Positions 16,179-31,909 of a DNA stretch of 64,000 bases are shown piece after piece. Both the position numbers and the translations under genes were made by a program. The notes beneath the pieces were generated by a model that was not told the DNA's origin, ran no database searches, and saw only the letters and a program-made list of their open reading frames with translations. This stretch comes from a virus, in IMG/VR virus record IMGVR_UViG_3300042453_002958, positions 1 through 64,000 of that record; one strand, 5' to 3'. Each line of letters opens with the position of its first letter. The first letter of the stretch is position 1.

Positions 16179-16191
16179 CAACGGTAGTTCA

Positions 16192-17094
16192 TCACGCCGC
16201 CGGGTTTCCCGGGGGGTGGTCGTCGGGCCGGATCCGCGGCAAGAGCTCCCACGGCTTCGGCTGGCGGGCTCCGGTGATCCGGGGGTCCAGGTAGCTCTCC
16301 CGCGTGATCGAGTCTGAGGAATGCCCCAGATACGCCGTGGCGTCGCCCCCGGCGGCATCCAGGTGGCTCGCCGTGCTCTTCCGAAGGACGTGGAACTGGA
16401 CATCCCTTCCGTCGCCAAGCCCGGCCCGCCGTGTGAGCGTCTTCCACCGCTTGCGAAGGGCGGTCATCGTGGCGCCCCAAAAAAACACCCGCTCGGCCCG
16501 GTGGTGCCGCAGCATGTCGTCCACCATGTCGCAGACCCACGGCGGCAGTTCGTAGGCGCGTTCCTGCCGCTTCCCCTTGCGAGTGTGCGGAGGCACGACC
16601 AACCACGGCCGCCTCCAGTTGTCGCGGGTGATCGCCAGCGTGGCCGTGATCCGCTCGCCGCTGTAGAAGAGCACCGCGATAAGCGTCGGGAAAAACAGCT
16701 TCGCCGGCACCGGCCCGACCCATCCCGTGCTGCGCTCCGCGACCGCGAACAGCCGCGACAGCTCCGCTTCCGTCAACGCCCGCGGCGTCCGCTCGGGGAC
16801 GACCTCCGCGCTGACGCACGGCCGCAGCCTAACGATGCCGCGGGCCTGCGCCAGATTCCAGAGCGCCAGCAACCCCGACCGCTCGCGGGCCACGGACTCC
16901 GGCGCGAGCTTCTCGCCGCGTTTGGCAAGAAACTGGCTCACGCGCAGATCCTCAAAATCCTCGAGCACCGCCGGGCGGCCGAGCCACCGCGAAAACTGCG
17001 TGATCGCGTGCCGCAGCAGCCGGACCGACTCCGGGCTTCGGCCGCGGAGTTTGAGCGGAACGTAGATGTCCGCGAGAAACTGATCGAGCGTCAT
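16192..17094 (-). CDS. int: Tyrosine integrase
   Basis: SGER, RKGK, FHVLRKS, LGHS, SYLD catalytic motifs; GAGGGAGG RBS. Confidence 0.9.
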   Translation of the reverse strand: MTLDQFLADIYVPLKLRGRSPESVRLLRHAITQFSRWLGRPAVLEDFEDLRVSQFLAKRGEKLAPESVARERSGLLALWNLAQARGIVRLRPCVSAEVVPERTPRALTEAELSRLFAVAERSTGWVGPVPAKLFFPTLIAVLFYSGERITATLAITRDNWRRPWLVVPPHTRKGKRQERAYELPPWVCDMVDDMLRHHRAERVFFWGATMTALRKRWKTLTRRAGLGDGRDVQFHVLRKSTASHLDAAGGDATAYLGHSSDSITRESYLDPRITGARQPKPWELLPRIRPDDHPPGNPAA

Positions 17095-17202
17095 GGCGTG
17101 TCCTCCCTCGTGTGGGATATAGGTCACGCTTCCGTGCGGGGAATGCCCTTCCGTGCTGGGGTGTCGGCCGTGCCGGCTTTGCCGGTCGATCCGTCCGAGA
17201 AT

Positions 17203-17223
17203 GGTTCGGTCCCACCCCCGCCA
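17203..17223 (+). other. Putative attP core resembling a tRNA 3' end (Met-like)
   Basis: GGTTCGGTCCCACCCCCGCCA resembles T-arm plus acceptor strand; just upstream of int; no tRNA 5' half. Confidence 0.45.
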
Positions 17224-17296
17224 CTTTCAACCGTTGCGATCCCCGTCGGGGACGGCAACGCAGAATGCCCGGGAAACCGGGGCTAGTCTGTAGGGA

Positions 17297-17581
17297 ATGG
17301 AGCCCGCCATGCCAGCCCCGCGTGATCGACACCCGGGCGGACGGCCGCGGACGCGGGCGCCGTCGCCGCTGTTCGTTCGGATCGAATCCTTGGCACGGCG
17401 TAGGGGGCTTCGTCTCGACCAGCTAGCAGAAATCGCCGGCGTCGGCCGTGCAACGCTCTACCAGCTGAACGACCCGAAGGTGTCAACCGCCCGCGCGATC
17501 GCCGCAGCTCTCGGTGTGACGCTGGACCGTCTAACGCGAGACGAACCCGCCGCGAAGCCGCGCCGCCAACGGTCGGCGTGA
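17297..17581 (+). CDS. XRE-family HTH regulator (candidate repressor)
   Basis: LDQLAEIAGVGRATLYQL...PKVSTARAIAAALGVTLDRL. Confidence 0.85.
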   Translation: MEPAMPAPRDRHPGGRPRTRAPSPLFVRIESLARRRGLRLDQLAEIAGVGRATLYQLNDPKVSTARAIAAALGVTLDRLTRDEPAAKPRRQRSA

Positions 17582-17850
17582 TATGCGGCGGATGATAACG
17601 TCGGCCACTCGCGTCACGCGGCCGGGCAACGCGCGATCGGCGGGGTGATATGCGGCACACCCGCCGCTACGGGGAACCGCAGAAACAATGGTTCTCCAAT
17701 CGATGTATCGCCGGTGCCCACGCGGTTCGCAGTAACGGTTTATCCTTCCGCCCGCTGCCGCCCCGAGCGACGCATGATCGCCGTCGGGCATCTGAGCTAT
17801 CGCCGCCGGCGCGGCGTCATGACTCGTGTCGGATCGCATCGCTCGCGTCC

Positions 17851-18153
17851 TCACTTGTCCGCCATCTGGATCGAGTGCCGCGCCATGCGCTCCGGCTGGA
17901 TCCGCTTGAAGTAGACGACGAAGACAAGATTGCTCTCGCCGTGATTGCCCTGGAGCAACGCGCCTAACTCGGCCAGCCGCGTCGCGGCCCTCGTGTTGAA
18001 GCGGCGAAACGCGACGCGCAGAAACGTAGTCGGCGGGTCCGCGGCCTCGAACTGGTCGAGGAATATCTGCTCGGGCGCGTCGCGGTATCCGTCCGCGCGG
18101 TAGAGCTGCTCGGCCGCTTCGCGAATCTGCGCGGCTGTCAGTCCGGCAATCAT
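17851..18153 (-). CDS. Hypothetical protein
   Basis: GGAGGG RBS; divergent from early operon. Confidence 0.45.
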   Translation of the reverse strand: MIAGLTAAQIREAAEQLYRADGYRDAPEQIFLDQFEAADPPTTFLRVAFRRFNTRAATRLAELGALLQGNHGESNLVFVVYFKRIQPERMARHSIQMADK

Positions 18154-18215
18154 TGGTCCCTCCATGCCGTGGCGGCCGTGATTCTAGCGGTTTGTCCGTT
18201 CTGTGGAAAACCCTC

Positions 18216-18243
18216 TTGACGCGATTGTCCGTGCGCCATAAAA
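18216..18243 (+). promoter_or_regulatory. Putative early rightward sigma70 promoter
   Basis: AACCCTC-TTGACG context also seen at 61153-61165; -10 weak (CATAAA). Confidence 0.4.
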
Positions 18244-18584
18244 CCCCTCCCCGTGACGCCCAACGTGGGCATCGCCGCGACGCTCACGCGATCGCGAAAA
18301 CGGACTTCTCAGGCGAGGGACTGCCACATGACCGCCACCAGCAATCGCGTGGCGTCCCGCATCGACAAGGGACGCACGAATGCGAAACCGAATCGCGGGA
18401 CTGACGACACCGGAGCACGATTCGCTCGACGATGGGCCGCTCGACGATCAGGCGGCCATGGAGTTCGCCCGCTGGACCCCGTCGCAGCGGCGGCTACGCA
18501 GGATGTTCGCACGGATGCAACGTCGGAGGATCCGACGGATTCTGCGGATGCACTCGGCCCCGGTCGCCATGGAGGGCGCCCGGG

Positions 18585-18779
18585 ATGCTGAGGCTACGCC
18601 GCAGAGTGGGCGAGCGGATCGTCGTCATCCCGCCGGACTCCGGGCCGATCCGTGTGACGGTCGTGGAAGTGGACGGGGGCAAAGTGTGGATCGGAGTGGA
18701 CGCCGACGCGGACACGAAGATCTACCGCGAAGAGGTATACCGACGAGTGCTCGAGGAGCGACAGCAGCCGCAGGAATGA
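18585..18779 (+). CDS. csrA: Carbon storage regulator CsrA/RsmA-like RNA-binding protein
   Basis: MLRLRRRVGERIVV...V.IGVDA...IYREEV. Confidence 0.85.
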   Translation: MLRLRRRVGERIVVIPPDSGPIRVTVVEVDGGKVWIGVDADADTKIYREEVYRRVLEERQQPQE

Positions 18780-19039
18780 TGCCGATGGGTTGCATCGCTG
18801 GCGACGCCATGCCGGGCGACGCGGAGGCGGCGGGGGCCGCGGCCGAAATCGCCGAGCAGGCCGGACTGTGCCGCGGGGATCTGGTGCTGTTCTTCGACGC
18901 TGAACGCGGGTTTCGCCAGCTCACCGCGGCATGGGTGATCCAGGTGACGACGCGCGGAGATGTCGTCGTCGAAACGTGCCTGGAGCGGTGCGAGCTGCTC
19001 GTGTCGGCCAGCCAGATCGCGCGGAGGATCCCGTCGTGA
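18776..19039 (+). CDS. Hypothetical protein
   Basis: ATGA-coupled to csrA. Confidence 0.5.
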   Translation: MMPMGCIAGDAMPGDAEAAGAAAEIAEQAGLCRGDLVLFFDAERGFRQLTAAWVIQVTTRGDVVVETCLERCELLVSASQIARRIPS

Positions 19040-19263
19040 AGCAACTCAACCGATCGGCGAGGGTGAGCCGGCGGCCAGCGGACGCTGCCGCGTGGATGCG
19101 AGCCCGGGTGTGGCGTCTGGTGCAGGCCGTGCGGCAGCTGCACGAGTCGGAAGTCTGCGTGTCCGCGAAGACCTACCGACAGGATCCGATGCTCCGAATG
19201 CTGGTCCGCGACACCGCGGACGAAATCGCGGCCGAGCTCCGCGTGCAAGGGGGGCCACTGTGA
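19036..19263 (+). CDS. Hypothetical protein, homolog of 62301-62528
   Basis: ARVWRLVQAV...LRMLVRD vs ARACRLLRAV...LRMVRE. Confidence 0.55.
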   Translation: MKQLNRSARVSRRPADAAAWMRARVWRLVQAVRQLHESEVCVSAKTYRQDPMLRMLVRDTADEIAAELRVQGGPL

Positions 19264-19417
19264 TGACCGCGTGTTTCGTGGCCGGGATCGCCGTCGGCGT
19301 CGGATGCACCGCTCTGGCGGTGGTGTTCGGCGCGGTGACGGCGTGCTGCTCGCGACGTAGCGATCGGCACTGGGACTGTGTTCGTGACCAACTGTTTTCC
19401 CACGATGGAGGTGAGCG

Positions 19418-20254
19418 ATGACCGAATCTGCGATTGCGGTGACACCGGCCAAGCGGTCGGTGCTGATGACGATGGCGACACGCTACGGGATGGAGCCCGA
19501 AGCGTTCGAGGCGACCGTGCGGGCCACATGCGGCATGGCGGGTGCGACACGCGAGGAGTTCGCGGCGTTCCTGCTCGTCGCGAAGGAATACGCCCTGAAC
19601 CCGGCCACGCGAGAAATCTACGCGTTTCCGAAAAAGGGCGGCGGAATCCAGCCGATCGTGTCCATCGACGGGTGGATCACGATGGGGAACAACCACCCGC
19701 AGATGGATGGCCTCGAGGTCGACTTCCAGCACGACGACGCCGGGAAGTTGGTGTCGGCTACGGCCCGCGTCTTTCGGAAGGATCGGTCGCACCCGGTCGT
19801 CGTGACGGAGTATCTGGCCGAGTGCATCCGGCCGACGGACCCGTGGAAGATGCAGCACCGGATGCTCCGGCACAAGGCGGCGATCCAAGCCTTCCGCTAC
19901 GCGTTCGGCTTCTCGGGGATCATGGAGCCGGACGAAGCCGAGGGGGTCGAGAGCCGGGCGGCCAGCACGACCACGCCCGAGCCGCGCGCGGTGCAAGAGC
20001 TGCCACCGCTGACCGAGGCCGAGTGGCAAAAGCTGATGCCCGCGTGGATCCGTGCGGTCGCGGCCGGCCGCAAAACGGGCGGCGACATCCTCGCCTTTGC
20101 CCGGACGCGGTGGTCGCTGACCGACGGCCAAGCCGACCAGATCATGCTGATCGGCGCCACCGTCGCCGATGACGGCGAAATCGTCGAGGCCGTGGCGGTG
20201 GGCCGCGGTGACGCGTGGGAACCGCCGGTCGGCGACGAAGGGGGTGCCGCATGA
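19418..20254 (+). CDS. bet: Bet/RecT-family single-strand annealing recombinase
   Basis: LNPATREIYAFP...PIVSIDGW...W...RMLRHKA.IQ..RYAFG. Confidence 0.92.
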   Translation: MTESAIAVTPAKRSVLMTMATRYGMEPEAFEATVRATCGMAGATREEFAAFLLVAKEYALNPATREIYAFPKKGGGIQPIVSIDGWITMGNNHPQMDGLEVDFQHDDAGKLVSATARVFRKDRSHPVVVTEYLAECIRPTDPWKMQHRMLRHKAAIQAFRYAFGFSGIMEPDEAEGVESRAASTTTPEPRAVQELPPLTEAEWQKLMPAWIRAVAAGRKTGGDILAFARTRWSLTDGQADQIMLIGATVADDGEIVEAVAVGRGDAWEPPVGDEGGAA

Positions 20255-21933
20255 AGATCATCTCGCTCGCCCAAGGCTCGCCGGAGTGGCTCGCGCACCG
20301 CGCCGCCCACTTCAACGCAAGCGACGCGCCGGCCATGCTCGGGTGCTCCCCGCACAAAAGCCGCCGACAGCTGCTCGCGGAGTGTGCCACGGGCATCACG
20401 CCGGAAGTCGACCCGGCGACGCAACGGCGGTTCAACAACGGCCACCGGCTGGAAGCCCTCGCGCGGCCCATGGCCGAGCAAATCGTCGGCGAGCCGCTCT
20501 ACCCGGTGACGGGCACGAACGGCCGCTACTCCGCGAGTTTCGACGGTCTGACGCTCGGGGGCGAAACCGCATTCGAGCACAAGGCGCTCAACGGCGACAT
20601 CCGGGCCGCGTTCCAATCCGGGGCCGACCTGCCCATGCACTACCGCGTGCAGATGGAGCACCAACTGCTCGTGAGCGGGGCCGGTCGCGTGCTGTTCGTG
20701 GCGAGCGATTGGGACGCCGCCGGGAATCTGCTCGAGTCGCACCACCGCTGGGTCGAATCGGACCCGGTGCTCCGCGAGCGGATCGTGGCCGGATGGACGC
20801 AGTTCGCGGCCGACCTAATGTCCTTCGAGCCGGCCGCGCCGGCGGAAGCGGCGCCGGTGGGAACCGCGCCGGAAACGCTGCCGGCCCTGCGGATCGAAGT
20901 CGAGGGCACCGTCATCGCCAGCAACCTCCAGACGTTCCGCGAAACCGCCATCACGGCAATCCGCCACGTCCGCCGAGACTTGACGACCGATCAGGACTTC
21001 GCGGACGCGGAGCTGTCGGTCAAATGGTGCCGGGAAGTCGAGACCCGGATCGACGCCGCCAAGGCTCACGCGCTGTCGCAGACCGCGTCCATCGAAGAGC
21101 TTTTCCGCACGCTCGACGACGTGTCCGCGGAGGCTCGCCGGGTGCGGCTCGACCTGGAGAAGCTGGTCCGCGGGCGGAAGGATGAAATCCGAACGTCGAT
21201 CGTGGTCGACGCCCAGCGGGCGCTGGCGAAGCATGTCGCCATGCTGTCGGCCGAAACCATGCCCTTCGAGCTTCGGCCGCCGGCGGCGGACTTCGGCGGG
21301 GCGGTCAAGGGGAAGCGTTCGATCACGGCCATGCACGACGCCGTCGACCACGCTCTGGCCGACGCCAAGATGGCCGCGGACGCGGAGGCCCGGGTCGTGC
21401 GAGCAAACGTCGCCGCATTCCGCGACATGGCGGCGGGCCGCGAGTCGCTCTTCCCCGACGGCGGGAAACTGATCGGCATGGAGCCGGCGGCGTTCCGCGA
21501 GTTGGTGGCCGGCCGGATCGCCCGGGCTGACGCGGAAAACGCGGAGCGTGCCCGGAAGGCCGCGGAAGCGGCAACGGCGGCGGCGCCGGAAGCGGCCACG
21601 CCGCCGGCCGTGCTCCACCAAACGACCGGCCCGGGGGCGCCGGAAACCGCGGCGGCGGCCGCGGCGGACGACGACTTCGGCGACGGCGACGAAGCGGCCA
21701 GCGAACCGGCCACGCTGAGCCTTGGCGACATCAACGCCCGGCTCGGGATCACGATGTCGGCCGCGTTCATCGCCAACACGCTGCAAGTGGCGCCAGCCGG
21801 GCGGAATCGCCGGGCGCTGCTGTTCACCGATCGCCAGTTCCGGGCCATCTGCCAGCGGCTGGCGTCGCACGTTCACGCGGTGAGCGCGCGGACTCGTGTT
21901 CGGGAAGTTGCAACGATCGGAGATGAATCATGA
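20251..21933 (+). CDS. YqaJ-like exonuclease with long helical extension
   Basis: QGSPEW, ASDAPAMLG, ASFDG, FEHK, Y.VQMEHQL. Confidence 0.9.
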   Translation: MKIISLAQGSPEWLAHRAAHFNASDAPAMLGCSPHKSRRQLLAECATGITPEVDPATQRRFNNGHRLEALARPMAEQIVGEPLYPVTGTNGRYSASFDGLTLGGETAFEHKALNGDIRAAFQSGADLPMHYRVQMEHQLLVSGAGRVLFVASDWDAAGNLLESHHRWVESDPVLRERIVAGWTQFAADLMSFEPAAPAEAAPVGTAPETLPALRIEVEGTVIASNLQTFRETAITAIRHVRRDLTTDQDFADAELSVKWCREVETRIDAAKAHALSQTASIEELFRTLDDVSAEARRVRLDLEKLVRGRKDEIRTSIVVDAQRALAKHVAMLSAETMPFELRPPAADFGGAVKGKRSITAMHDAVDHALADAKMAADAEARVVRANVAAFRDMAAGRESLFPDGGKLIGMEPAAFRELVAGRIARADAENAERARKAAEAATAAAPEAATPPAVLHQTTGPGAPETAAAAAADDDFGDGDEAASEPATLSLGDINARLGITMSAAFIANTLQVAPAGRNRRALLFTDRQFRAICQRLASHVHAVSARTRVREVATIGDES

Positions 21934-22166
21934 TCCGGCGAGCCTTGCGGTGGATCTTCGGGATCGACGCGTTCGAGCGGATGGAGGCCGAGCTGCACCA
22001 AATGGAAGTCCACCGTAAAGCCTACCGTGACAACGCGCGGAGTCTTTCGGAGGAAAACTCGCGGCTCCGAAAAACGATCGCCGAGCAGCGGTCGCTGCTC
22101 GTGATGCTCCGCGACGTGAATCGCGAGATGGACGAACGTATCGGGAAGTTGGAGGGTGTCGCGTGA
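21930..22166 (+). CDS. Coiled-coil hypothetical protein
   Basis: ATGA-coupled ORF. Confidence 0.55.
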   Translation: MIRRALRWIFGIDAFERMEAELHQMEVHRKAYRDNARSLSEENSRLRKTIAEQRSLLVMLRDVNREMDERIGKLEGVA

Positions 22167-22348
22167 AGTCCCCGGAAGCCAGGGAATACGAGCGGCTCGA
22201 CCGGCATATCCGCACGGCAAACAGCGTCCGCGAGCTGCTGATATGGGACGCCGGGCGGGCAATGGCCGCGCTGCCGGCCACGCACGACAAGGCGCTCGCC
22301 CGAGCGGTGGCCGCGCGAATGCAGCACCTGACGGGGCGGAAGCCATGA
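22163..22348 (+). CDS. Hypothetical protein
   Basis: GTGA-coupled, GGAGG RBS. Confidence 0.5.
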   Translation: MKSPEAREYERLDRHIRTANSVRELLIWDAGRAMAALPATHDKALARAVAARMQHLTGRKP

Positions 22349-22701
22349 GCGACTATTGGCCAGAGCGAACGGACTTCGGGCCGCTGTTCTCCGCGCCCAA
22401 GGCCCGCGCGAGCGATCCGCCGACATCCCACGCGGCCGCGCGATCACGCGGCCTGACCGGCCAAAAGCTGCTCGTGTACGAAGCCCTCGCCGCCGGCCCT
22501 GCCGGCCAGACCGAGCTCGGCCAGCGGATCGGGATGGACGCCCACCGCGTCAACAAGCGGCTCGCGGACCTCGAAAGCGAAGGGCTTGCCGCGCCGACGG
22601 GCGACGAAGTTCGCAACGCTGGCGGGTGCCTGGAGCGGGTTTGGCGACGGATCGCAACCAATGCGGAATCGAATGGAGGCCAGCATGGCACGGAAGCCTG
22701 A
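22345..22701 (+). CDS. Winged-helix DNA-binding protein
   Basis: ARASDPPTSHAAA motif; ELGQRIG...KRLADLESEGL. Confidence 0.7.
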   Translation: MSDYWPERTDFGPLFSAPKARASDPPTSHAAARSRGLTGQKLLVYEALAAGPAGQTELGQRIGMDAHRVNKRLADLESEGLAAPTGDEVRNAGGCLERVWRRIATNAESNGGQHGTEA

Positions 22702-23731
22702 CACGCGGCACGTTCTGCCGCTGTTTTGCGACGACCTGATCGCGTCCACCGTGGACATGACGCCCGCGTGCTTCGGCGCGTACATGCGGCTCATCTGCTA
22801 CGCGTGGACGCGCGGCGGACTGCCGAACGACGAGCGAGCATGCGATCGGATCGCCGGCGGGATGGAGCCGGGGGATTGGGACACCATCCGGCCGCGACTG
22901 ATCGAGCTGGACGACGGCCGCTTGAGCCACGACCGCCTCGAGCGGGAGCGGGCGGCGGTTGACAGCATGGCCGAGAAGCGATCCGAAGCCGGCCGGAAGG
23001 GAAACGACACCCGCTGGGGATCGCAAACGGATCGCAAAGCGATCGCAAACGGATCGCAAAGCGATCGCAAAGCCATCGCAAACGAATCGCGTGCTTCTTC
23101 GGATTCTGCGCCATGGCCCGTCGACCGGGCCGGATGTCGGGAATCCGATTCGGAATCGAGTTCCATCGACACCCGCGAATCTCCGGCAAAAACCGCGGTT
23201 CGATCGCAAAGCGATCGCAAACGGATCGCAAACGGATCGCAAAGCGATCGCAAAACGATCGCCCCTACTCCTACCCTACTCCTACCCAAGCAAGAGGAAA
23301 GACAATACGCGCGCGCCGACGGCGAAACGCCGCAGCCGGGGGCCGGGAACGCGGGGCCAGAGCCGGGGGCCGACGGGGACCCCGCGGCGGCCACGAAGCC
23401 CGCGGCCCGCCCGCGGCGGCCCGGATGGGTGCATGACGAGTGGGCGCGGATCGTCGAGGTGTGGAACGCGACCGATCGCGCCGTGCCCTGGACGCTCGTG
23501 ACGCCGCCGAACGGATTCGCCGACCTTGCCGCGTCCCCGGGGTGGGTCGCGCAAGCCCTCGCGGCGGTCGCCATGCTCCCCGAGTGCCGACGGTTCGAGC
23601 GGCCCGTGCCGTGGACGCAGTTCGTGCGGGATCTGGACCGGATTATCGCCGGCGAGTTCCGCGATCCGAGGGAGGCCCCGCGCCAGCTGGCCGCAGCCGG
23701 GGGCCGCCCGCAACGAAGGGGAAATCTATGA
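22685..23731 (+). CDS. Replication initiator (YdaU/DUF1376-like N-terminus)
   Basis: PLFCDDLIAST...GAYMRLICYAW..GGLP; internal iterons. Confidence 0.8.
   Translation: MARKPDTRHVLPLFCDDLIASTVDMTPACFGAYMRLICYAWTRGGLPNDERACDRIAGGMEPGDWDTIRPRLIELDDGRLSHDRLERERAAVDSMAEKRSEAGRKGNDTRWGSQTDRKAIANGSQSDRKAIANESRASSDSAPWPVDRAGCRESDSESSSIDTRESPAKTAVRSQSDRKRIANGSQSDRKTIAPTPTLLLPKQEERQYARADGETPQPGAGNAGPEPGADGDPAAATKPAARPRRPGWVHDEWARIVEVWNATDRAVPWTLVTPPNGFADLAASPGWVAQALAAVAMLPECRRFERPVPWTQFVRDLDRIIAGEFRDPREAPRQLAAAGGRPQRRGNL
23019..23262 (+). repeat. Two arrays of 11-bp-period iterons GATCGCAAA(CG/GC): putative origin
   Basis: About 6-7 units at 23019-23090 and 5-6 units at 23202-23262 inside the initiator gene. 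Confidence 0.8.
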
Positions 23732-24321
23732 GCCGGACGTGGGACGAAAACCGCGAGACGATCAACGGGCTCTGGCCGATGGCGCAGTTCACCGCGGAGG
23801 AAGCCGATCTGTGGCGATCCGACCTGGAGCCGCTGAACCAAGACGCGCTGTTCGAGGCGATCCGGCAGGTGAAACGGTCCCGGGACTCAGTCTACCCGCA
23901 ACTCGCTTGGGTGCATGACGCGTATCGCCAGCTGCGGGCGGCGCAGCGTGTCGCCGAGCGGATGCACGACGAGCGCCAGCCGGCCTACTCCGGGGAGCGA
24001 CTCGTGATCGACGCGGAGGATAGCCGCCGGCTTCGGGCGCAGTTCGAGGCGGACATCGGCGCCGCAGCGACGATCGAAGCCCTCGACCACGTCGCCGCTT
24101 CGATCGCGGCGTCGCTCGAGCGGATGGAGGCCGTGGCGGCGGTCGTGCTCTGCGGGAAAGTGCGGGAGGCCCGGCAGCGGCTCGAGCACCCGGAAATCCC
24201 CCAGCGGTCGGCGCCATCCATGCGGTCGGCGCCGCGGGACGCGCGCGAGTGGCACGGCGAAGAGCACTCGCGATCGGAGTTCCTCCGCGTGCTGTCCGAT
24301 TCCGAGCTCGGCCGGGATTGA
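23728..24321 (+). CDS. Putative helicase loader/inhibitor-like protein
   Basis: Directly follows initiator; W...L..L...L..AI....YP pattern. Confidence 0.4.
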   Translation: MSRTWDENRETINGLWPMAQFTAEEADLWRSDLEPLNQDALFEAIRQVKRSRDSVYPQLAWVHDAYRQLRAAQRVAERMHDERQPAYSGERLVIDAEDSRRLRAQFEADIGAAATIEALDHVAASIAASLERMEAVAAVVLCGKVREARQRLEHPEIPQRSAPSMRSAPRDAREWHGEEHSRSEFLRVLSDSELGRD

Positions 24322-24377
24322 AGAAGTGCCCCCCGTCGCGACACGATACAACCATGGATGCGAGCACGGACGCGAGC

Positions 24378-24866
24378 ATGAATGCCAGAACGGTCATCGG
24401 CATCGACCCCGGGCCGCGGGAGTCGGCGTTCGTCGCGTGGGATGGCGAACGCGTGGTGTCGGCGGGAGACATGCCGAACCACCAGTTGGTGGCCTACCTG
24501 GACTCCGCGTCGTCGCCGGTCGCATGCGAGTGGATCGAATCGTTCGGGATGTCGGTCGGCCGCGAAGTGTTCGAGACCGTCTTCGCGATCGGGATGTTTT
24601 CCACGCGCGTCGCGAGAATGCGGCTGGTGCCGCGGCGTGACGTGAAGTTGCACCTATGCTCGTCTGTCCGGGCGAAAGACGGGAACATCCGCCAAGCCCT
24701 GATCGACCGCTTCGGCGCCGTCGGCACGAAGCGGAACCCGGGGCCGCTGGCCGGAATCAGCCAGCACCGATGGGCGGCCCTCGCCGTCGCGGTGACGGCA
24801 TTCGACCTAGCGGTCACGGACCACGAAGCCACGTTCCACCGCGATCACGCGAACGTGGTGGCATGA
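24378..24866 (+). CDS. RuvC-like Holliday junction resolvase
   Basis: VIGIDPG, ACEWI, KDGNIRQALIDRFG, ALAVA. Confidence 0.75.
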   Translation: MNARTVIGIDPGPRESAFVAWDGERVVSAGDMPNHQLVAYLDSASSPVACEWIESFGMSVGREVFETVFAIGMFSTRVARMRLVPRRDVKLHLCSSVRAKDGNIRQALIDRFGAVGTKRNPGPLAGISQHRWAALAVAVTAFDLAVTDHEATFHRDHANVVA

Positions 24867-25372
24867 TGGTCGCAGATCACACCGCCGCCGACGTGCTCGC
24901 GTTCGTGGCCGCGAGTGCCGCGCGCTACGTCGCGCGATCCGGGGGCGACGCGGAGGAAATCACGCAGCGGATCATGCTGGCCATCGGCGAGCCGGTGAGG
25001 CACGGCGAATCCGAGTGGGCCTACACCGTGACGGCGGTGCGGAACGCGGTCGCTTCGATCGCGCGGCACGACCGGCGACTCCGTCGTTTTCCGGCGGTGC
25101 CCGTCGTCTCCGCGCACTCCGGGATCGCGCAACGCGACGCGATGTCCGATCAGGAGCGGATCGAGCTGCGAATCGACATCGACGCGTGCCTGGAGCGTGA
25201 AGGTGAGCAGGTGAGGCGGCTTTGCCGATTGCTCGAGACGATGAGCGTCGCGGAGGCGTCGCGCGTGATGAACGTGCCGCGGTCGACGCTCGCCGGCTGG
25301 CTTGCCGGGCTGCGCGACCGGATGGAGGCGAAGGGGCTGTCGCCGGGCCGAAAAGGTACTCCCGGCGGTTGA
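24863..25372 (+). CDS. ECF sigma factor-like late regulator
   Basis: DAEEITQ, VRNAV region-2-like; SVAEASRVMNVPRSTL region-4 HTH. Confidence 0.65.
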   Translation: MMVADHTAADVLAFVAASAARYVARSGGDAEEITQRIMLAIGEPVRHGESEWAYTVTAVRNAVASIARHDRRLRRFPAVPVVSAHSGIAQRDAMSDQERIELRIDIDACLEREGEQVRRLCRLLETMSVAEASRVMNVPRSTLAGWLAGLRDRMEAKGLSPGRKGTPGG

Positions 25373-25456
25373 AAAAAACCCCCACGGCCTACGGAACGAC
25401 CGACTATTCAGTCAAACTTGTCCCACCAAAAAAAAGAATGAACCGGCGGCCCCCTC

Positions 25457-25485
25457 TTGACGTATGGTATCCAGTCGGATATCAT
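25457..25485 (+). promoter_or_regulatory. Cassette promoter A1 with operator in spacer
   Basis: TTGACG-17-TATCAT; palindrome TATCC-AGTC-GGATA. Confidence 0.85.
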
Positions 25486-25537
25486 ACAGACGTGCGAGCG
25501 AATGAGACTCGCAAAACGAAAACGGGAACCCGCGACC

Positions 25538-25810
25538 ATGACCACGACTGCGACCAGCTGGAAAAAAGGCGACCGCGTGAAACTGACCACGACCACCGCC
25601 GGCCCCGAGTTGCTCGAGATCGTGAGCTTTCGCCGTACCGGCGCCGAGCAGCGCGTCGTGCTCGCGGACGCTGAAACCGCGGCCCGAATCCGGGCCGGTG
25701 AAGTCGACGCCCGAATCGTCGTCCTCACCGGAATCGGCGGCCGCGTTCGCGAGATTGAAACGCAGCGATTCCACCGGCTTGCCGCCCGCGGGCTCGCCGT
25801 CCACGCCTGA
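25538..25810 (+). CDS. Cassette orphan protein A-1
   Basis: Follows promoter A1; GACCATGACC start. Confidence 0.65.
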   Translation: MTTTATSWKKGDRVKLTTTTAGPELLEIVSFRRTGAEQRVVLADAETAARIRAGEVDARIVVLTGIGGRVREIETQRFHRLAARGLAVHA

Positions 25811-25840
25811 CCACCAAGGAATAAACCGCCGGCCGCCCTC

Positions 25841-25869
25841 TTGACGAATGGTATCCAATCGGATATCAT
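25841..25869 (+). promoter_or_regulatory. Cassette promoter A2 with operator in spacer
   Basis: TTGACG-17-TATCAT; TATCC-AATC-GGATA. Confidence 0.85.
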
Positions 25870-25897
25870 TACGGTAACACGGGAGAGAAAACGAATC

Positions 25898-26386
25898 ATG
25901 TCGACGATCGAAGTGATGGGGATGGCCGAGGAAGGAACTTGCCAGCACTGCGGGACGAACTGCCCTCGCCGGCGGGTTGCTGTCCGCGCCGTCTACGCCG
26001 ACGGCTCCACGGGCGAAGTCGAGCTTTGGGGTGTCGTCTGCGCCGGCTCGGCCCGGTACGGTCGCCGGACTGCGGCGAACGGAAACCGCGTCCGCCAGGA
26101 CGCCGAGCACGCGGACCGCGTCGCGGAGCTGGACCGGCTCGACCGCGAGCGTCGCTTCGCCTACCGCGTCGCCGGCGAAGTGCCGGTCGAGGGCGGGCCG
26201 CGGAACGCCGCGAATCTTCGCTACCGCCGGACCGGACGGCCGATCGTCGGCAGCTACTTCCTCGCCGACGAAGCGGGGCGGATTGTGCGCGTCGACGGGA
26301 CCGATCCCGCTGACGTAAAGCTGTTCGCCGACCGCGGCTTCACGACCCCGGTGTCCTCGCCGGTTCCCACCGCGATCCACGCCTGA
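25898..26386 (+). CDS. Cassette protein A-2 with putative Zn finger
   Basis: CQHCG...WGVVCA; GGGAG RBS. Confidence 0.65.
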   Translation: MSTIEVMGMAEEGTCQHCGTNCPRRRVAVRAVYADGSTGEVELWGVVCAGSARYGRRTAANGNRVRQDAEHADRVAELDRLDRERRFAYRVAGEVPVEGGPRNAANLRYRRTGRPIVGSYFLADEAGRIVRVDGTDPADVKLFADRGFTTPVSSPVPTAIHA

Positions 26387-26403
26387 ACACCACGGAGCAT
26401 TCA

Positions 26404-26667
26404 ATGCGATACTACGAAGTGAAGACCGCGAACACGACCTACTACCTGCGCGCGGATGCCGGCCGCGTCCACCACGACGGAATCAACCGCGACGCCACCA
26501 CCGACGTGTGGGGCGGCCGGTTCCAGTTCTTCACGCTGGCCGGGACGAAAATGCCCCGCGTCGGGTGCCCGATGCACGGCCAAAATGCTACGGGCCGCAT
26601 CCAAACAAGCCCGGTTCGGTCCGTTCGCAGAATCGGGGTCCGCGAGTTCACGCGGGCGGGTGCCTGA
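26404..26667 (+). CDS. Cassette orphan protein A-3
   Basis: CACGGAG RBS. Confidence 0.6.
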   Translation: MRYYEVKTANTTYYLRADAGRVHHDGINRDATTDVWGGRFQFFTLAGTKMPRVGCPMHGQNATGRIQTSPVRSVRRIGVREFTRAGA

Positions 26668-26669
26668 CC

Positions 26670-26861
26670 ATGAAAATCGACCCCGCCCACTACGTTCGAG
26701 TCGGAACCGCCGCGAAAATCGCCGGAGTGACGCGTGCCTACGTTCGCCGACTGATACACGAGCAAAAGCTCGAGGCGATCCCGCTGGACGGGATCTTTCT
26801 GGTGCGTCGACGTGACGCCGAAGCCCTGAAACGCCACCGCGAGGAGCGCGACCATGACTGA
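26670..26861 (+). CDS. Small excisionase-like (HTH_17/MerR-type) HTH protein
   Basis: MKIDPAHYVRVGTAAKIAGVTRAYVRRLI; homolog of 55302-55535. Confidence 0.75.
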   Translation: MKIDPAHYVRVGTAAKIAGVTRAYVRRLIHEQKLEAIPLDGIFLVRRRDAEALKRHREERDHD

Positions 26862-27525
26862 CCTGCCGACGCGACAGAATCCGCTGCTGTTCGACAAAAC
26901 CGACCCCGTCGTCGACCCGGACGTGATCCGAAAAGCGCACGTCACGGTGGTGCGGGAGCGGAAACGCGACATCCGCGATTTGCGACGCAAGGAAAACGCC
27001 GCCGAAGCCGTCTCCGGCCTGCACCTGGACGGCCGCGAAATCTTCGGGCTGACGAAGGGCCAGTTTTCGCTGACCGACATGATCGACGCCGCGCTGGCCA
27101 TCACCGGGCCGGCCGAGTTGCACGTCTCGACCTGGACCGCCGCGAATACGGACGTGTCGAAAATGCTCGAGATGATCGGGTCCGGGAAGCTGACTGCCGC
27201 GCGGTGGCTTGTGGACGTGACGTTCGTGCGACGCGCCCCCCAGCTGGCGGCCCGTATCCGCGAAGCGTTCGGCGCCGACGCGATCCGCGTCACCCGGACA
27301 CACGCCAAGTTTTCCGTGATTCGGAACCAGACGTGGTCGGTCGTGGTGCGCACCAGCATGAATCTCAACCACAACCCGCGGCTCGAAGACTTCACGATCG
27401 CCCACGACCCGGAGCTCGCCGCGTTTCTTTTGGAGGCCATGGACGATGTCTGGAAAACGCAAAAGCGAACAATCGCCGACGGAAGCCACACCGCCGCCAC
27501 CGAGTGGTGGCATCGCCACGGCTGA
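26854..27525 (+). CDS. Phospholipase D-like (HxK) nuclease-fold protein
   Basis: HAKF...TSMNLN.NPRLE. Confidence 0.65.
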   Translation: MTDLPTRQNPLLFDKTDPVVDPDVIRKAHVTVVRERKRDIRDLRRKENAAEAVSGLHLDGREIFGLTKGQFSLTDMIDAALAITGPAELHVSTWTAANTDVSKMLEMIGSGKLTAARWLVDVTFVRRAPQLAARIREAFGADAIRVTRTHAKFSVIRNQTWSVVVRTSMNLNHNPRLEDFTIAHDPELAAFLLEAMDDVWKTQKRTIADGSHTAATEWWHRHG

Positions 27526-27802
27526 ACCGCCCGCCACGATCGCCGTGGTGCAATGGCTGATAAGCGGCGCGAGCGAGCACGATGTCGTCGAGGCATTGCG
27601 GGCCAAGTACCCCGGGACAGACGCCCGCAAAACCATGGCGGCCGTGTTCGAATACTTCGCGCACGAAGGAGCGCCAGACGCGGACGCCCTCCGCGGGTTC
27701 GTGCTGACCGCATACCGCGAGCTGTACCGCCGCATGCTGGACATCGGCGACTTCGATGGCGCCCGAAAAGTGCTCAAGAATATCACCGAGGTAGGACTGT
27801 GA
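27446..27802 (+). CDS. Putative terminase small subunit
   Basis: Position immediately before large subunit; start uncertain. Confidence 0.45.
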   Translation: MSGKRKSEQSPTEATPPPPSGGIATAEPPATIAVVQWLISGASEHDVVEALRAKYPGTDARKTMAAVFEYFAHEGAPDADALRGFVLTAYRELYRRMLDIGDFDGARKVLKNITEVGL

Positions 27803-29904
27803 CGCTCTTCGGCGCCGGCTCCGGCCGCAAGCAAAAACACGCCGACCGCCACGACAAACGCAAGGCCGCAAGCGCCAGCCGCGACAAGGCGGTAAGCGCT
27901 GCCGGTCGCGACATCGGCGAACTGCCCGCCGTCGCCGATCCAGACCGCAAGGCCGCTTGCCGGCTGAACTTTCGGCTGTTTTGCGAGACCTACTACCGAG
28001 ACCAGTTCTACCTCGAATGGTCCGACGACCACCTGGAGATCATCGCGGCGCTCGAGGCCGCCGTGCTGCGCGGCGAGTTGCTCGCGTTCGCCATGAGCCG
28101 CGGCAGCGGCAAAACCGCACTGATCGAGGCCGCGGCCGCGTGGGCGCTGTTCTTCGGTCACCAGCAGTTCGTGGTCATCATCGGCGCCACCGAAGAGCAC
28201 GCCGCGCAGATGCTGGAAAACATCAAAGTGTCGTGCGAGACACGCGAACTCCTCGCGGCGGACTTCCCCGAAGTGTGCTACCCCATCGCCAAGCTCGAAA
28301 GAATCAACAATCGCGCCCGCGGCCAGCTGTTCCGCGGCAAGCCCACCCACATCCACTGGAACGGCGACGACGTGCAACTCCCCACGATCCCGGGATCGCC
28401 GGCATCGGGCGGAATCATCCGCGTCCGCGGCATCACCGGATCCATCCGCGGCATGGCCGTCACGCGGGCGTGCGATGGCCGCAAGGTTCGTCCGTCGCTC
28501 GTGCTCGTGGACGATCCGCAGACCGACAAAAGCGCGCGAAGCCCGTCGCAAGTCGCCCAGCTGGAAAAAGTTTTCAAGGGGGCGGTGCTCGGGCTTGCCG
28601 GCCCCGACGTGCAAATCGCCGGACTCGTCACCGTGACCGTCGTAGCCCCGGACGACCTAGCGGAGCGACTGCTCGACCGCGAGCGGAACCCGGCTTGCCA
28701 TGGCCGGCGAATGAAACTGGTCTACGCGTGGCCGACCGAGACCGAACTATGGGAGCAATACGCCGAGTTGCGGAAGGCCGGCCAGCGGAGCGGCGTCGGA
28801 ACCGCGGACGCCGACAAGCTGTTCGCCGACAACCTCGAGCGGATGACCGCGGGGTGCCGTGTCGGCTGGCCGGCACGCAAGAAAACCGGCGAGATCCACG
28901 CTATCCAATCCGCCTACAACCTCCGCATCGACAAGGGGGAGGCCGTGTTCGCGGCCGAGTTCCAAAACGAGCCGCTGCCGCTCGTCGACCGGGCCGTCGA
29001 AGAGCTCACCGCGCCCGAGATCACGGACAAAACCAACCGCTACCCCAGGGGATTCGTCCCGCTGGCGTGCCAGTATCTGTCGATGTTCGTCGACTGCCAA
29101 AAAGACGTTCTCTACTGGGCCGTGTGCGCGTGGGAAGACACGTTCTCCGGCTACGTCATCGACTACGGCACTTTCCCCGATCAGCGGCGGCCGTACTTCA
29201 CGGTCCGCGAAGTGACGCGAAAGCTGACGGACGTGTCCAAAGCCAAAAGCGTCGAGGGGGCGCTGCTCGAGGGACTGCACTCGCTGACCGCAAACTTCCT
29301 GGGCCGCGAGTGGAAGCGCGAAGATGGCGCCACCATGCGAATCGAGCGTTGCCTTGTGGACGCGAACTACATGAGCGACACCGTCTACCAGTTTTGCCGC
29401 GAGTCGTCGCGGGCCGGCGTGATGCCAAGCCACGGCCAGGGCGTCAAGGCGTCCAGCCTTCCATTCGCCATGTACGCGCGGAAGCCGGGCGACCGCGTCG
29501 GGCACTACTGGCGGATCCCAAACACGGCAAAGCGTCGCGTCATCCGCCACGTCATGATCGACACGAACTACTGGAAATCGTTCATCCACGCGCGGCTCGC
29601 CACGCCGCGGGGCGATGCCGGGTGCCTGAGTCTCTTCGGCGAACACGGCGACCTGCACCGCATGCTCGCGGACCACCTTGTCGCCGAGTATCGCGTCAGC
29701 AACACCGCCAAAGGCCGAACCGTCGAAGAGTGGAGCCCGCGGCCGGGACGGCCGGATAACCACTGGCTCGACTGTCTGGTCGGCTGCGCCGTCGGCGCGT
29801 CGATGCAGGGGGCGACGCTGTCGGGGTCGCAGGGATTCGCGGCCGCGCGAAAGCGGCGGGTTTCGTTCGCCGAGATGCAACGCCAACGGAGGGCCGGGGC
29901 ATGA
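27799..29904 (+). CDS. Terminase large subunit (GpA-like)
   Basis: MSRGSGKT Walker A, LVLVDD Walker B, C-terminal DNHWLDC nuclease. Confidence 0.92.
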   Translation: MTLFGAGSGRKQKHADRHDKRKAASASRDKAVSAAGRDIGELPAVADPDRKAACRLNFRLFCETYYRDQFYLEWSDDHLEIIAALEAAVLRGELLAFAMSRGSGKTALIEAAAAWALFFGHQQFVVIIGATEEHAAQMLENIKVSCETRELLAADFPEVCYPIAKLERINNRARGQLFRGKPTHIHWNGDDVQLPTIPGSPASGGIIRVRGITGSIRGMAVTRACDGRKVRPSLVLVDDPQTDKSARSPSQVAQLEKVFKGAVLGLAGPDVQIAGLVTVTVVAPDDLAERLLDRERNPACHGRRMKLVYAWPTETELWEQYAELRKAGQRSGVGTADADKLFADNLERMTAGCRVGWPARKKTGEIHAIQSAYNLRIDKGEAVFAAEFQNEPLPLVDRAVEELTAPEITDKTNRYPRGFVPLACQYLSMFVDCQKDVLYWAVCAWEDTFSGYVIDYGTFPDQRRPYFTVREVTRKLTDVSKAKSVEGALLEGLHSLTANFLGREWKREDGATMRIERCLVDANYMSDTVYQFCRESSRAGVMPSHGQGVKASSLPFAMYARKPGDRVGHYWRIPNTAKRRVIRHVMIDTNYWKSFIHARLATPRGDAGCLSLFGEHGDLHRMLADHLVAEYRVSNTAKGRTVEEWSPRPGRPDNHWLDCLVGCAVGASMQGATLSGSQGFAAARKRRVSFAEMQRQRRAGA

Positions 29905-30092
29905 TGACCGAGCAAACTGACGCCGTCGGGATCGCGTGCCCGCGGTGCGGGTGCCAAGATCTGCGGACGACAAAAACCATGCGAGTCCGCGACGGCATGA
30001 TCCGCCGCTACCGCTCGTGCCGACACTGCGGCCGGACGATGACGACGCACGAAGTGACGACGCGGCGCGAAGCGGTGCGTCGGCGCGGCTGA
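29901..30092 (+). CDS. Zinc-ribbon protein (Ogr/NrdR-like)
   Basis: CPRCG...RRYRSCRHCG...TTHE. Confidence 0.7.
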   Translation: MMTEQTDAVGIACPRCGCQDLRTTKTMRVRDGMIRRYRSCRHCGRTMTTHEVTTRREAVRRRG

Positions 30093-30208
30093 CCGCAGCC
30101 GTTTCCTATATGTAGGAAGACTCCAGAAATCCGGCGGCGGTGCGCCGCCACTTCGCGCGCAAACGGCGTTTCTTGTCTCCAGAGGAATCATCCTCGGGAG
30201 CGCCGCCC

Positions 30209-30409
30209 GTGCCGGACGACACGATCACCGACGCCATTCGCGAGAACGCCGCCGGCCCCGCAAAGGCCAGCGGCGACTCCATCTCGGTCGAGCAGCACTC
30301 GATCCGCGAGCAGATCGAGGCGGATCGCTACCTCGCCAGCAAGCGGGCCGCGTCCAAGCCGCACCGCGGCCTGCGATTTACCCGCATCGTCCCCCCGGGG
30401 GCCGAGTAG
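30209..30409 (+). CDS. gpW-like head completion protein
   Basis: Small ORF between terminase and lambda-type portal. Confidence 0.65.
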   Translation: MPDDTITDAIRENAAGPAKASGDSISVEQHSIREQIEADRYLASKRAASKPHRGLRFTRIVPPGAE

Positions 30410-31909
30410 ATGGGGTGGCTTTCCCGACTGTTTTCGTCGCCGATGGCCGCCCCGCGGACGGTCGCGCGGCATGCGCTCCGCATGATCCGCGGCAGCTATG
30501 ACGCCGCGCGGACGACCGACGACAACCGGAAGCACTGGGCGAACGTCGACAGCCTCTCGGCCAACGCCGCGCTGTCGCCGTCCGTCCGGCAGACGCTCCG
30601 CGAGCGTGCCCGCTACGAAGTCGCGAACAACTGCTACGCGGCGGGACTCGTGCGGACGGTCGCCAACGACCTGATCGGCACGGGGCCGACGCTCCAGATC
30701 GTCGCCCCCGACGGGCACGACGCCAACCCGATCGAGCGTTCGTGGTCGCAGTGGGCCAAGGCCGTGAAGCTCGCGCGGAAGCTGCGGTGCATGCGGCAAT
30801 GCCTCAGCCGCGACGGCGAAGCGTTCGCGGTGATGTTCACGAACCCGAAGATCGACCACCCCGTCAAGCTCGACCTCCGGCTGGTCGAGGCCGAGCAGGT
30901 GACGACGCCCACGCTGATCCGCGAAAACGCGGTCGACGGGATCGTCTTCGACGAGTACGGGAATCCGCTCGCCTACCACATCCTTCGCACCCACCCGGGC
31001 GACGTGCTCCACACGATGGAGTACGACGAAGTGCCGGCCGAATACGTCATCCACTGGTACCGGCTCGAGCGGCCCGGCCAAAAGCGGGGCGTGCCGATCC
31101 TCGCGCCCGCACTGCCGCTGTTTTCCAAGCTGCGGCGGTTCACGCTCGCCGTGCTCGGGGCCGCCGAAGCCGCCGCGATGCAGGCCGGCGTGCTCTACAC
31201 CGACGGCGCGCCGCACGACGAAGACGTGGAGGGCGAAGCGTTTGAGTCGGTCGAGTTCGAGCGGAATATGTTCACGACCCTACCCGGCGGCTACCGCCTG
31301 GAGCAGCTGAAAGCCGAGCAGCCGACGACGACGTACTCCGAGTTCAAGGCCGAGCTGATCGACGAGGCGGCGCGGTGCGAAAACGTGCCGAGCAACATCG
31401 CCCGCGGCAACTCGTCCGCCTACAACTACGCCAGCGGCCGCCTCGACAACCAGATGTTCGGCCGGTCGCAGCACGTTGACCACTCCGAAGTCGAGGAAGA
31501 GGTCATCGACCGCATCTGGGCCGCCTGGATCGACGAAGCGGCCCGCGAGCCCGGCGTAATCCCCGACGGATTCCCGCCGATGGCCGAGTGCTCCCACGAA
31601 TGGTTTTGGGACGGCCGCGAGCACGTCGACCCGAACAAGGAAGCCAACGCGCAGGCCACCCGGCTCGCGAACCTCACCACGTCGCTCGCGGAGGAGTGGG
31701 CCAACCGCGGCCGCGATTGGGAGAAGGGCATGCGGCAGATCGCTCGCGAGCGACAGCTGCTCGCCGAGCTGGGCCTGTCGCTGCCGGACGCCACGCAGGT
31801 GACGACCGCGTCGTCCGCCGCCTCCGCGCTGTCGGACATTGCCGACGGCGACGAATCCGCCGCCGGCCAAGCCGGACTCGCGATCGCCAACCGCAGGGGA
31901 GGCCGATGA
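30410..31909 (+). CDS. Portal protein, lambda family
   Basis: LRERARYEVANN, RPGQKRGVP, NYASGRLD, VDPNKE. Confidence 0.92.
   Translation: MGWLSRLFSSPMAAPRTVARHALRMIRGSYDAARTTDDNRKHWANVDSLSANAALSPSVRQTLRERARYEVANNCYAAGLVRTVANDLIGTGPTLQIVAPDGHDANPIERSWSQWAKAVKLARKLRCMRQCLSRDGEAFAVMFTNPKIDHPVKLDLRLVEAEQVTTPTLIRENAVDGIVFDEYGNPLAYHILRTHPGDVLHTMEYDEVPAEYVIHWYRLERPGQKRGVPILAPALPLFSKLRRFTLAVLGAAEAAAMQAGVLYTDGAPHDEDVEGEAFESVEFERNMFTTLPGGYRLEQLKAEQPTTTYSEFKAELIDEAARCENVPSNIARGNSSAYNYASGRLDNQMFGRSQHVDHSEVEEEVIDRIWAAWIDEAAREPGVIPDGFPPMAECSHEWFWDGREHVDPNKEANAQATRLANLTTSLAEEWANRGRDWEKGMRQIARERQLLAELGLSLPDATQVTTASSAASALSDIADGDESAAGQAGLAIANRRGGR

Follow-up and report, generated by a model that had tools for sequence, protein, structure and literature searches.

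The array and its promoters with putative operators

The stretch analysed here (the window) comprises the first 64 kb of the virus record IMGVR_UViG_3300042453_002958 from IMG/VR, which has 77,375 bp in total and holds two related but diverged phage genomes, phage A (approximately 1-36666) and phage B (from 36667). We focused on an array of phage A in which two repeated promoters, each with a palindrome that we regard as a putative operator, would drive three small genes, hereafter the cargo genes, and a gene for a small helix-turn-helix (HTH) protein, HTH-A. The features of the array, all of them on the + strand, are the following (nt, nucleotides):

25424-25456, +, upstream half of repeat 1, with CCACCA, an A-tract and GAATGAACCG, similar to an UP element
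25457-25485, +, promoter P_A1, -35 TTGACG, 17-nt spacer, -10 TATCAT
25468-25481, +, putative operator O_A1, TATCC-AGTC-GGATA, the final TA being the first bases of the -10
25493-25513, +, 5'-leader hairpin, 6-bp stem and loop C-GAATGAGA, present after P_A1 and not after P_A2
25538-25810, +, cargo gene A1, 90 amino acids, orphan
25841-25869, +, promoter P_A2, TTGACG-17-TATCAT
25852-25865, +, putative operator O_A2, TATCC-AATC-GGATA
25898-26386, +, cargo gene A2, 162 amino acids with a CxxC motif, orphan
26404-26667, +, cargo gene orf3, 87 amino acids, orphan
26670-26861, +, HTH-A, 63 amino acids, MerR/Xis-type winged HTH, proposed dimeric repressor of O_A1 and O_A2

An earlier note on this DNA had described two repeats of about 60 bp carrying a palindrome within TTGACG-17-TATCAT promoters, and this description was confirmed. 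Within the window, the only instances of the 29-nt core TTGACG-NN-TGGTATCC-NN-TCGGATATCAT are those of P_A1 (25457-25485) and P_A2 (25841-25869), both on the + strand, and 0 copies are expected in shuffled sequence. The repeats reach upstream through an A-tract (CCACCA-A-rich-GAAT-R-AACCG), which gives the total of approximately 60 bp, and the promoters of related phages have A/T tracts at an equal upstream distance. In a consensus scan of positions 16000-31000, P_A1 and P_A2 were the only sigma-70-type promoters with 10 of 12 matches, and across the whole 77-kb contig the palindrome TATCC-N4-GGATA, with 0-1 mismatch allowed, was found at O_A1 and O_A2 only. Regarding the register, the -35 is followed by 5 nt and by the 14-mer, whose last TA opens the -10. 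This arrangement is invariant in both of the operator classes described below, and the spacer measures 17 nt in nearly all the promoter copies.

Some candidate sites were discarded. The site with two mismatches at 22207 reads as coding sequence and has the frequency expected by chance. The bare 14-mer TATCCGATTGGATA, scanned for in the whole collection, was too unspecific to serve as a marker: it gave 112 loci, 11 of them high in G+C. Five of these 11 had a promoter context and all five encode the HTH protein, and the other six had neither the HTH gene nor any genes in common with the phages of the window; in L097 the 14-mer falls inside a DNA polymerase III alpha gene, and the flanks in L152 are identical to those in L097. 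The locus L001 of the first scan was a chance match in coding DNA of lower G+C.

The HTH-A protein

The recognition helix of HTH-A reads V-T-R-A-Y-V-R-R-L-I. The homology to a phage B protein (55535-55305, - strand) that the earlier note had seen was borne out by a pairwise comparison, with 38% identity over 58 amino acids and an E-value of 9e-11; phage A encodes one member of this family and phage B two. In the profile databases HTH-A matched phrog_66 ('excisionase and transcriptional regulator') weakly, and the PADLOC profile of mad1 (PDLC04133) with an E-value of 1.5e-7 and 29.6 bits, residues 7-61 being aligned with positions 4-58 of the 60 in the profile.

The AlphaFold model of HTH-A has a predicted local distance difference test score (pLDDT) of 90. 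It consists of strand 8-10, helices 11-18 and 22-30, strands 36-39 and 42-46 and helix 47-62, that is, a MerR-like winged helix as modelled, with a strand, the helix-turn-helix, a beta-hairpin wing and a C-terminal helix. Its best structural matches were the DNA-binding domain of RacA, BldC, Pukovnik Xis, P2 Cox and the N-domains of MerR-family proteins, with template modelling (TM) scores of 0.6-0.7 and a probability of about 1.0, and RdfS was also among them. A profile search of the sequences of solved structures with HTH-A gave spurious weak matches only, and the identity to the fold matches was 19-31%.

The predicted homodimer had an ipSAE of 0.65, the best of three controls being 0.00. 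A score of this height was obtained for 20 of 30 proteins whose solved form is a same-chain pair and for 1 of 23 solved as single chains; these counts are only roughly valid here because a custom alignment was used. The contacts agreed between runs at 86% or more and the partner pLDDT was at least 90. The predicted interface is made of residues 1-10 and the wing, residues 37-44, and these are the most conserved parts of the family outside the helix (K-I-D-P-x-x-Y-V and the D-G wing). Thus, the model supports, and does not show, a symmetric HTH-A dimer suited to a palindrome. With 63 amino acids and one short C-terminal helix, HTH-A has none of the coiled-coil or effector domains of MerR proteins.

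A library-wide search with the family profile retrieved 973 representative clusters at E-values of 0.001 or lower, many of them with 2-7 tandem copies of the domain. Two different copies are fused within one polypeptide in P0013, P0014, P0016 and P0018, and two adjacent genes are found in loci L039 and L192. By their sequences, these tandem and adjacent copies suggest that the regulator has hetero-dimeric forms.

Linkage and co-variation of the HTH gene and the palindrome

Homologues were collected from 12 database clusters, 38 viral-contig loci, 39 metagenome loci, one contig of a Pirellulales metagenome-assembled genome (MAG) and phages A and B. From these we extracted 50 distinct HTH protein sequences and searched for the site TATCC-N4-GGATA (A-type) with 0-1 mismatch within 1.5 kb of the gene. 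The earlier note had named homologues that commonly occur without the motif as the observation that would speak against its proposal. We found the opposite: all 40 homologues with the helix V-T-R-A-Y-x-x-R-L/M (TRAY) had an A-type site nearby, which was perfect in 30 of the 40, whereas none of the 10 with other helices had one. Furthermore, the 70 kb of viral-locus sequence close to the gene contained 20 perfect A-type sites, against 3 in the other 198 kb, and those 3 are also in promoters.

The 10 non-TRAY helices are V-S-R-F/Q-W-M-L-Q, V-S-R-L-W-M-R-K and, in phage B, V-S-R-Y-Y-L-R-E. A site of the TTGNCGATCGNC type (TTGCC) was detected in seven of these 10 homologues, and manual inspection of L185 revealed a variant site; no site in the promoter register was seen near the HTH gene in L033 and L037. 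The two operator types have the core CCGAT(C/T)GG in common and differ at the symmetric positions 2-3 and 12-13, which is the pattern expected of diverging repressor-operator pairs. Judged by their sequences, phages A and B thus have the same architecture in different specificity classes. Therefore, cross-binding of the A and B proteins would not be expected, except perhaps at the hybrid operator of promoter B3 described below.

Gene neighbourhoods

The neighbourhoods were obtained by tblastn with all the proteins of the window, and four types were distinguished:

Type I, sigma-like gene, cargo, HTH, endonuclease and terminase: phage A, L003-L008 and L041
Type II, XRE gene on the opposite strand, followed by integrase, HTH and operator promoter: L009-L013
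Type III, integrase, 185-amino-acid HTH_17 protein, cargo, HTH, operator promoter and Prim-Pol: phage B and L033-L038
Type IV, HTH within the late region, between its own operator promoter and another that lies 17 nt past its stop codon: L015-L028

The only partner of the HTH gene that stays constant through the four neighbourhoods is the operator promoter. The proposal of the earlier note that operator and regulator travel together as a portable module, and that this HTH protein is the likely cognate repressor, is supported by this linkage.

In type IV the HTH gene's own promoter has a conserved operator with one mismatch (right half GGCTA or GGGTA) and the downstream promoter has a perfect operator in nearly all loci, a pattern of sites which suggests graded autoregulation. 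In these loci (L015-L028, around 7968-8220) the HTH gene, and in several of them the next gene as well, starts 6-7 nt past the -10 hexamer, and for this reason the transcripts would be leaderless.

The relatives of type I, and not phage A, have an extra site at most 6 nt past the HTH stop codon, just before the endonuclease start and without a good -35. It is a promoterless intergenic site directly after the stop codon in L005-L008 and L041, where it could act as a roadblock.

The array of phage B

The corresponding features of phage B, all on the - strand, are these:

55243-55271, -, promoter B4, TTGCC-type operator in the same register, beginning 31 nt past the stop codon of HTH-B
55302-55535, -, HTH-B, homologue of HTH-A, recognition helix V-S-R-Y-Y-L-R-E-L
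56931-56959, -, promoter B3, with a hybrid operator and the shared 11-mer
58524-59078, -, 185-amino-acid protein whose C-terminal domain is the second member of the HTH family

The operators of phage B are of a separate type (TTGCCGATCGGCTA). As the earlier note had observed, the 11-mer TATCCAATCGG is common to P_A2 and B3: it is found at 25852 and 56935, in phage B on the strand opposite to the promoter. It is shared because the B3 operator (56935-56948) is a hybrid, with a left half of B-type (TTGCC) and a right half of A-type (GGATA). The left halves of the phage B operators are constant and the right halves vary (GGCTA, GAATA, GGATA); this asymmetry could be due to the constraint of the -10 or to binding by two different paralogues. 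The statement that the array ends in the HTH gene stands for phage A and does not for phage B, where promoter B4 and two more genes follow HTH-B.

The C-terminal domain of the 58524-59078 product scored 28.3 bits against HTH_17 (PF12728), whose cut-off is 27, and matched the profile of the HTH-A-homologue family with an E-value of 2.6e-10. The link of HTH-A to HTH_17 is therefore transitive, through this paralogous domain. Since phage B has two family members, the binder of its sites is ambiguous: HTH-B and the C-terminal domain of the 58524-59078 product are candidates of equal standing.

Nearly every early gene of phage B (55100-59100, - strand) has a CA-rich leader with CACAACCA repeats followed by a GGAG ribosome-binding site. 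In L192 a different repeated leader, TACCGCCGAGG, is found in the same role.

Proposed regulation and alternative explanations

We think it likely, from the sequence comparisons and the structural model, that HTH-A is an autorepressor which acts on P_A1 and P_A2 through the palindrome, as part of a portable module placed over exchangeable cargo. An HTH-A homodimer would bind the 14-bp palindrome TATCC-N4-GGATA, which fills the 3' part of the 17-nt spacer and overlaps the first two bases of the -10 in both promoters. P_A1 and P_A2, which appear to be strong and dependent on a host sigma-70, would give a burst of A1, A2 and orf3 expression. As the HTH gene comes last among the small genes of the unit driven by them, a negative-feedback loop would result, and the promoters would then be shut off by occlusion of RNA polymerase. 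This supposes that HTH-A binds DNA, dimerises in vivo and represses rather than activates, and that the promoters are active in the host, possibly a member of the Pirellulales. Promoter, operator and regulator recur as a unit at varied sites in related phages, the genes between or behind them being exchanged; in the lineage of phage A the exchange points would be the repeated promoters and a 17-nt repeat at gene ends.

Several observations weigh against this proposal. The scores of HTH-A are below the curated cut-offs, both for HTH_17 (21.0 bits, cut-off 27) and for TIGR01764 (23.3 bits, cut-off 28.8), and the E-values of the fold search were all above 0.01. The association of helix and site has a Fisher p of around 1e-10, which overstates independence because the co-variation represents only 2-3 independent evolutionary switches. 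The operators of phage A lie 0.8-1.2 kb upstream of the HTH gene and are not adjacent to it. No terminator was seen between HTH-A and the overlapping nuclease and terminase genes, so that repression might reach the packaging genes as well, a complication for a simple early shut-off. Finally, the family is annotated as 'excisionase family' and is adjacent to an integrase in two of the contexts, and a role in recombination directionality is possible.

This last point leads to the alternative that HTH-A is mainly an excisionase or recombination directionality factor, or a bifunctional protein of the Cox/Apl type, the palindromes being secondary targets or bound by something else. The weak matches to phrog_66 and TIGR01764 point in this direction, as do the Joint Genome Institute (JGI) label 'excisionase family' on two homologues, the presence of Pukovnik Xis, RdfS and P2 Cox among the structural matches, and the position of the HTH gene directly after the integrase in L009-L013 and in the integrase operon in the loci similar to phage B. 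However, the integrase of phage A (16192-17094, - strand) is 9.6 kb from HTH-A and on the opposite strand, in L015-L028 the gene is in the late region with no integrase nearby, and its constant neighbour is the operator promoter and not the integrase. Moreover, the sites found linked to the family are palindromes in promoter spacers, in agreement with the predicted symmetric dimer, and not direct repeats of att arms. We therefore consider this alternative unlikely as a replacement for repression, although a role in recombination directionality could coexist with it, by analogy with P2 Cox. It is rather improbable that the palindromes are bound by another regulator and the HTH gene is a syntenic passenger. 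Phage A does encode further HTH regulators, the XRE protein (17297-17581), which the earlier note had set as the alternative binder, and the 17851-18153 product being the candidates together with a host factor such as LexA, and still others could be encoded beyond the ends of the fetched loci, which are partial. Nevertheless, there is no A-type site in the XRE/immunity region, the early promoter at 18215-18243 being without one, and a type IV relative, 92% complete and with both the HTH gene and the operator, has no XRE homologue at an E-value of 0.01 or lower, which disfavours XRE. If a host factor were the binder, the existence of two operator classes that track the recognition helix of the phage protein would be left unexplained, and a passenger would not have kept within 1.5 kb of the site, and in most loci right next to it, across four contexts that differ by rearrangement.

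In another explanation the palindrome serves activation: the promoters would be late promoters read by the sigma-like factor encoded at 24863-25372, or HTH-A would be an activator that remodels the spacer as MerR does. The sigma-like gene lies directly upstream in the genomes of phage A type, the downstream genes, including terminase and structural genes, are on the same strand with no obvious terminator, and MerR proteins do bind between -35 and -10. There is also a pattern like that of extracytoplasmic function (ECF) sigma factors, GAACC-N16-CGTAT (25441-25468 in phage A), which overlaps the promoter in phage A, L006-L008 and L041; from this pattern an overlapping ECF-type promoter for the adjacent sigma-like gene is conceivable. 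However, the hexamers match the housekeeping consensus in 10-11 of 12 positions with the optimal 17-nt spacer, and the promoter architecture is the same in loci without a sigma-like gene within the stretch fetched. Promoters activated by MerR have spacers of 19-20 nt. Activation in the style of MerR is unlikely because the spacer here is 17 nt and the 63-residue HTH-A is without a coiled coil or effector domain. Even taken jointly, the two forms of activation seem very improbable to us.

Variation of the cargo genes

Each of the three cargo genes of phage A is missing in some natural variant. In the relative L002/L003, approximately 95% identical, there is one promoter and a unit of 384 bp (a promoter copy and A1) is missing, the break being within the promoter repeat. 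Run X3 belongs to an independent freshwater study and has a contig in which 25811 is joined to 26388, P_A2 and A2 being gone together. Regarding orf3, a contig of run X4 has 40 other nt in its place, and L003 has a divergent allele of it. Among the other relatives, A1 and A2 are adjacent in L005, with no promoter separating them; A2 is present alone in L006 and together with orf3 in L008, and in L041 there is only a gene similar to orf3.

A 17-nt direct repeat (TCCACGCCTGA-N-CACCA) lies at the ends of two of these genes:

25800-25816, +, copy 1, across the A1 stop codon, TCCACGCCTGA-C-CACCA
26376-26392, +, copy 2, across the A2 stop codon, 576 bp from copy 1

These are the only two copies in the window, where 0.04 are expected, and A1 and A2 are otherwise unrelated. 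The deletion in the X3 contig measures 576 bp, the same as the spacing of the copies, and runs exactly between them. From these junctions, the cargo variation looks like recombination at short repeats and not like the work of a dedicated site-specific cassette system.

The cargo proteins of phage A belong to no Pfam, PHROGs or PADLOC family, and a protein atlas gave sub-threshold leads only, the best (0.85) for A2. In the relatives, the genes behind operator promoters encode a DNA methylase, an LPD29-domain protein, DUF551 proteins, a LexA-like DNA-binding protein and many orphans. Between the cargo genes of phages A and B no similarity was detected, and the earlier note was right that they differ. 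We also compared A2 with the first gene after B3, since both have Cys motifs, and rejected the pair as not detectably homologous (E-value 0.43).

The 5'-leader hairpin

The hairpin that follows P_A1 is also found just after the operator promoters of L004, L005, L011, L014, L029, L031, L161, L164, L168 and L178. Its loop is invariant, C-GA(A/T)TG(A/T)GA, whereas the stems differ among loci and yet stay paired: 94.7% of the cells of the alignment are paired and four of the six pairs change on both sides, that is, in a compensatory manner. The covariation score was 0.67, against 0.21 in shuffles, and none of 500 shuffles scored as high. A search of 25300-27000 against Rfam gave no match.

Comparison with known systems

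In every tested family of anti-CRISPR-associated (Aca) proteins an inverted repeat lies inside a near-consensus core promoter and that promoter is repressed (PMC9410906). The acr-aca operons (Aca1-Aca13 and the N-domain of AcrIIA1) are thus the closest known logic, with a strong near-consensus promoter and the inverted repeat in the core promoter (PMC9410906). As in them, a conserved small HTH gene closes a series of variable small genes, the genomic positions are varied and the regulator can be used for guilt-by-association. However, the regulator here is a winged helix of the MerR/Xis type, and HTH_17, excisionase and MerR are unmentioned in two published Aca surveys; no cargo gene of phage A is a known anti-CRISPR; freshwater bacteria that are uncultured serve as hosts, the Pirellulales MAG contig being the one lead; and some loci have the HTH gene before the regulated promoter and not behind it. 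Because the fold class differs and no cargo is a known anti-CRISPR, we do not claim membership in any Aca family.

The N-domain of RacA, BldC, P2 Cox and Pukovnik Xis have a fold like that of HTH-A and around 60 residues. RacA recognises an inverted repeat of 14 bp and P2 Cox combines the roles of promoter repressor and excisionase, whereas BldC and the Xis proteins bind direct repeats head-to-tail, unlike the palindromic site and the predicted symmetric dimer described here. There is a likeness as well to MAD1, the product of gene 1 of the MADS operon, in the full-length profile match and the similar size. MAD1, of about 60 residues, is treated by the authors of the MADS study as a widespread type of regulator, and its deletion affects defence little (bioRxiv 10.1101/2023.03.30.534895). 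Unlike MADS, the array has no mad2-mad8 and no other PADLOC match among ten neighbouring proteins, and it is set in a phage and not in a bacterial defence island. In being repeated and dispersed in a phage genome, the sites also resemble the stoperators that cluster A mycobacteriophages have (L5 gp71), and some of the copies described here lie between genes without a promoter, a position that would suit a roadblock. However, a genome has about 20-30 stoperators, which are asymmetric and to which the immunity repressor binds, whereas the sites here are palindromic and only two in phage A, both in promoter spacers.

Taking all of this together, we tentatively suggest a wider reading, which we regard as possible rather than probable: the winged-HTH family with its fixed-register operators might be an Aca-like marker of counter-defence or host-takeover arrays in freshwater Planctomycetota phages, with at least two orthogonal classes (TRAY with TATCC; SRxW and SRYY with TTGCC) and with the co-evolving hairpin as a second, post-transcriptional layer. 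If this were true, the orphan cargo would amount to a reservoir of new anti-defence proteins, the host group having no cultured phage model. The family marks sites of hypervariable accessory genes in a group of freshwater phages that are uncultured and possibly infect Pirellulales, and this could help in looking for anti-defence genes, in the way that aca genes are used in Proteobacteria and Firmicutes. Autorepression of a strong promoter through an inverted repeat is already well established, and therefore this is an extension and not a new mechanism. The regulator and operator make a specific and cheaply testable pair, and reporters should be functional in E. coli, given how close the promoters are to the consensus of that species. 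The natural specificity variants, with changes at two symmetric operator positions and in one helix, are a compact system for studying how minimal proteins of the MerR/Xis fold read DNA.

Genome setting

The phage comes from freshwater lakes. All genes of phage A from around 18.6 kb round to 16.2 kb are on the + strand, and the array is located at the junction of the replication and recombination block, upstream, and the packaging block, downstream. Its neighbours are:

24354-24866, Holliday-junction resolvase, which with the next gene closes the replication and recombination block
24863-25372, +, sigma-70/ECF-like gene directly upstream of the array, given as context
26854-27525, +, endonuclease with an H-x-K motif (phrog_16945, E-value 9e-42), overlapping the stop codon of HTH-A, packaging block
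27545-27802, possible small terminase, packaging block
27799-29904, +, terminase large subunit of gpA type (GpA_nuclease, E-value 4e-28)

The 24863-25372 product matched phrog_1740 with an E-value of 6e-5 and TIGR02937 with 2.4e-6, the latter below the cutoff, and Sigma70_r2 and an HTH domain weakly. The endonuclease is found between the HTH gene and the small terminase in all the type I relatives, with 85-99% identity, and may be part of the packaging machinery. Regarding the terminase of phage A, none of the known isolated phages is close, the identity being at most 29% over half of its length.

The two genomes of the record meet at a stretch of 129 bp that is 99% identical (1-129 and 36667-36795), and a further pair of segments is 35145-35548 of the window and 76975-77375 of the contig. 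The junction may have arisen in the assembly, at a segment that both genomes share, or by genuine recombination.

Finally, two arrays of 11-bp repeats, GATCGCAAA(C/G)(C/G), are present at 22997-23284, inside the gene at 22586-23731, and are likely an iteron-type origin within a replication gene.

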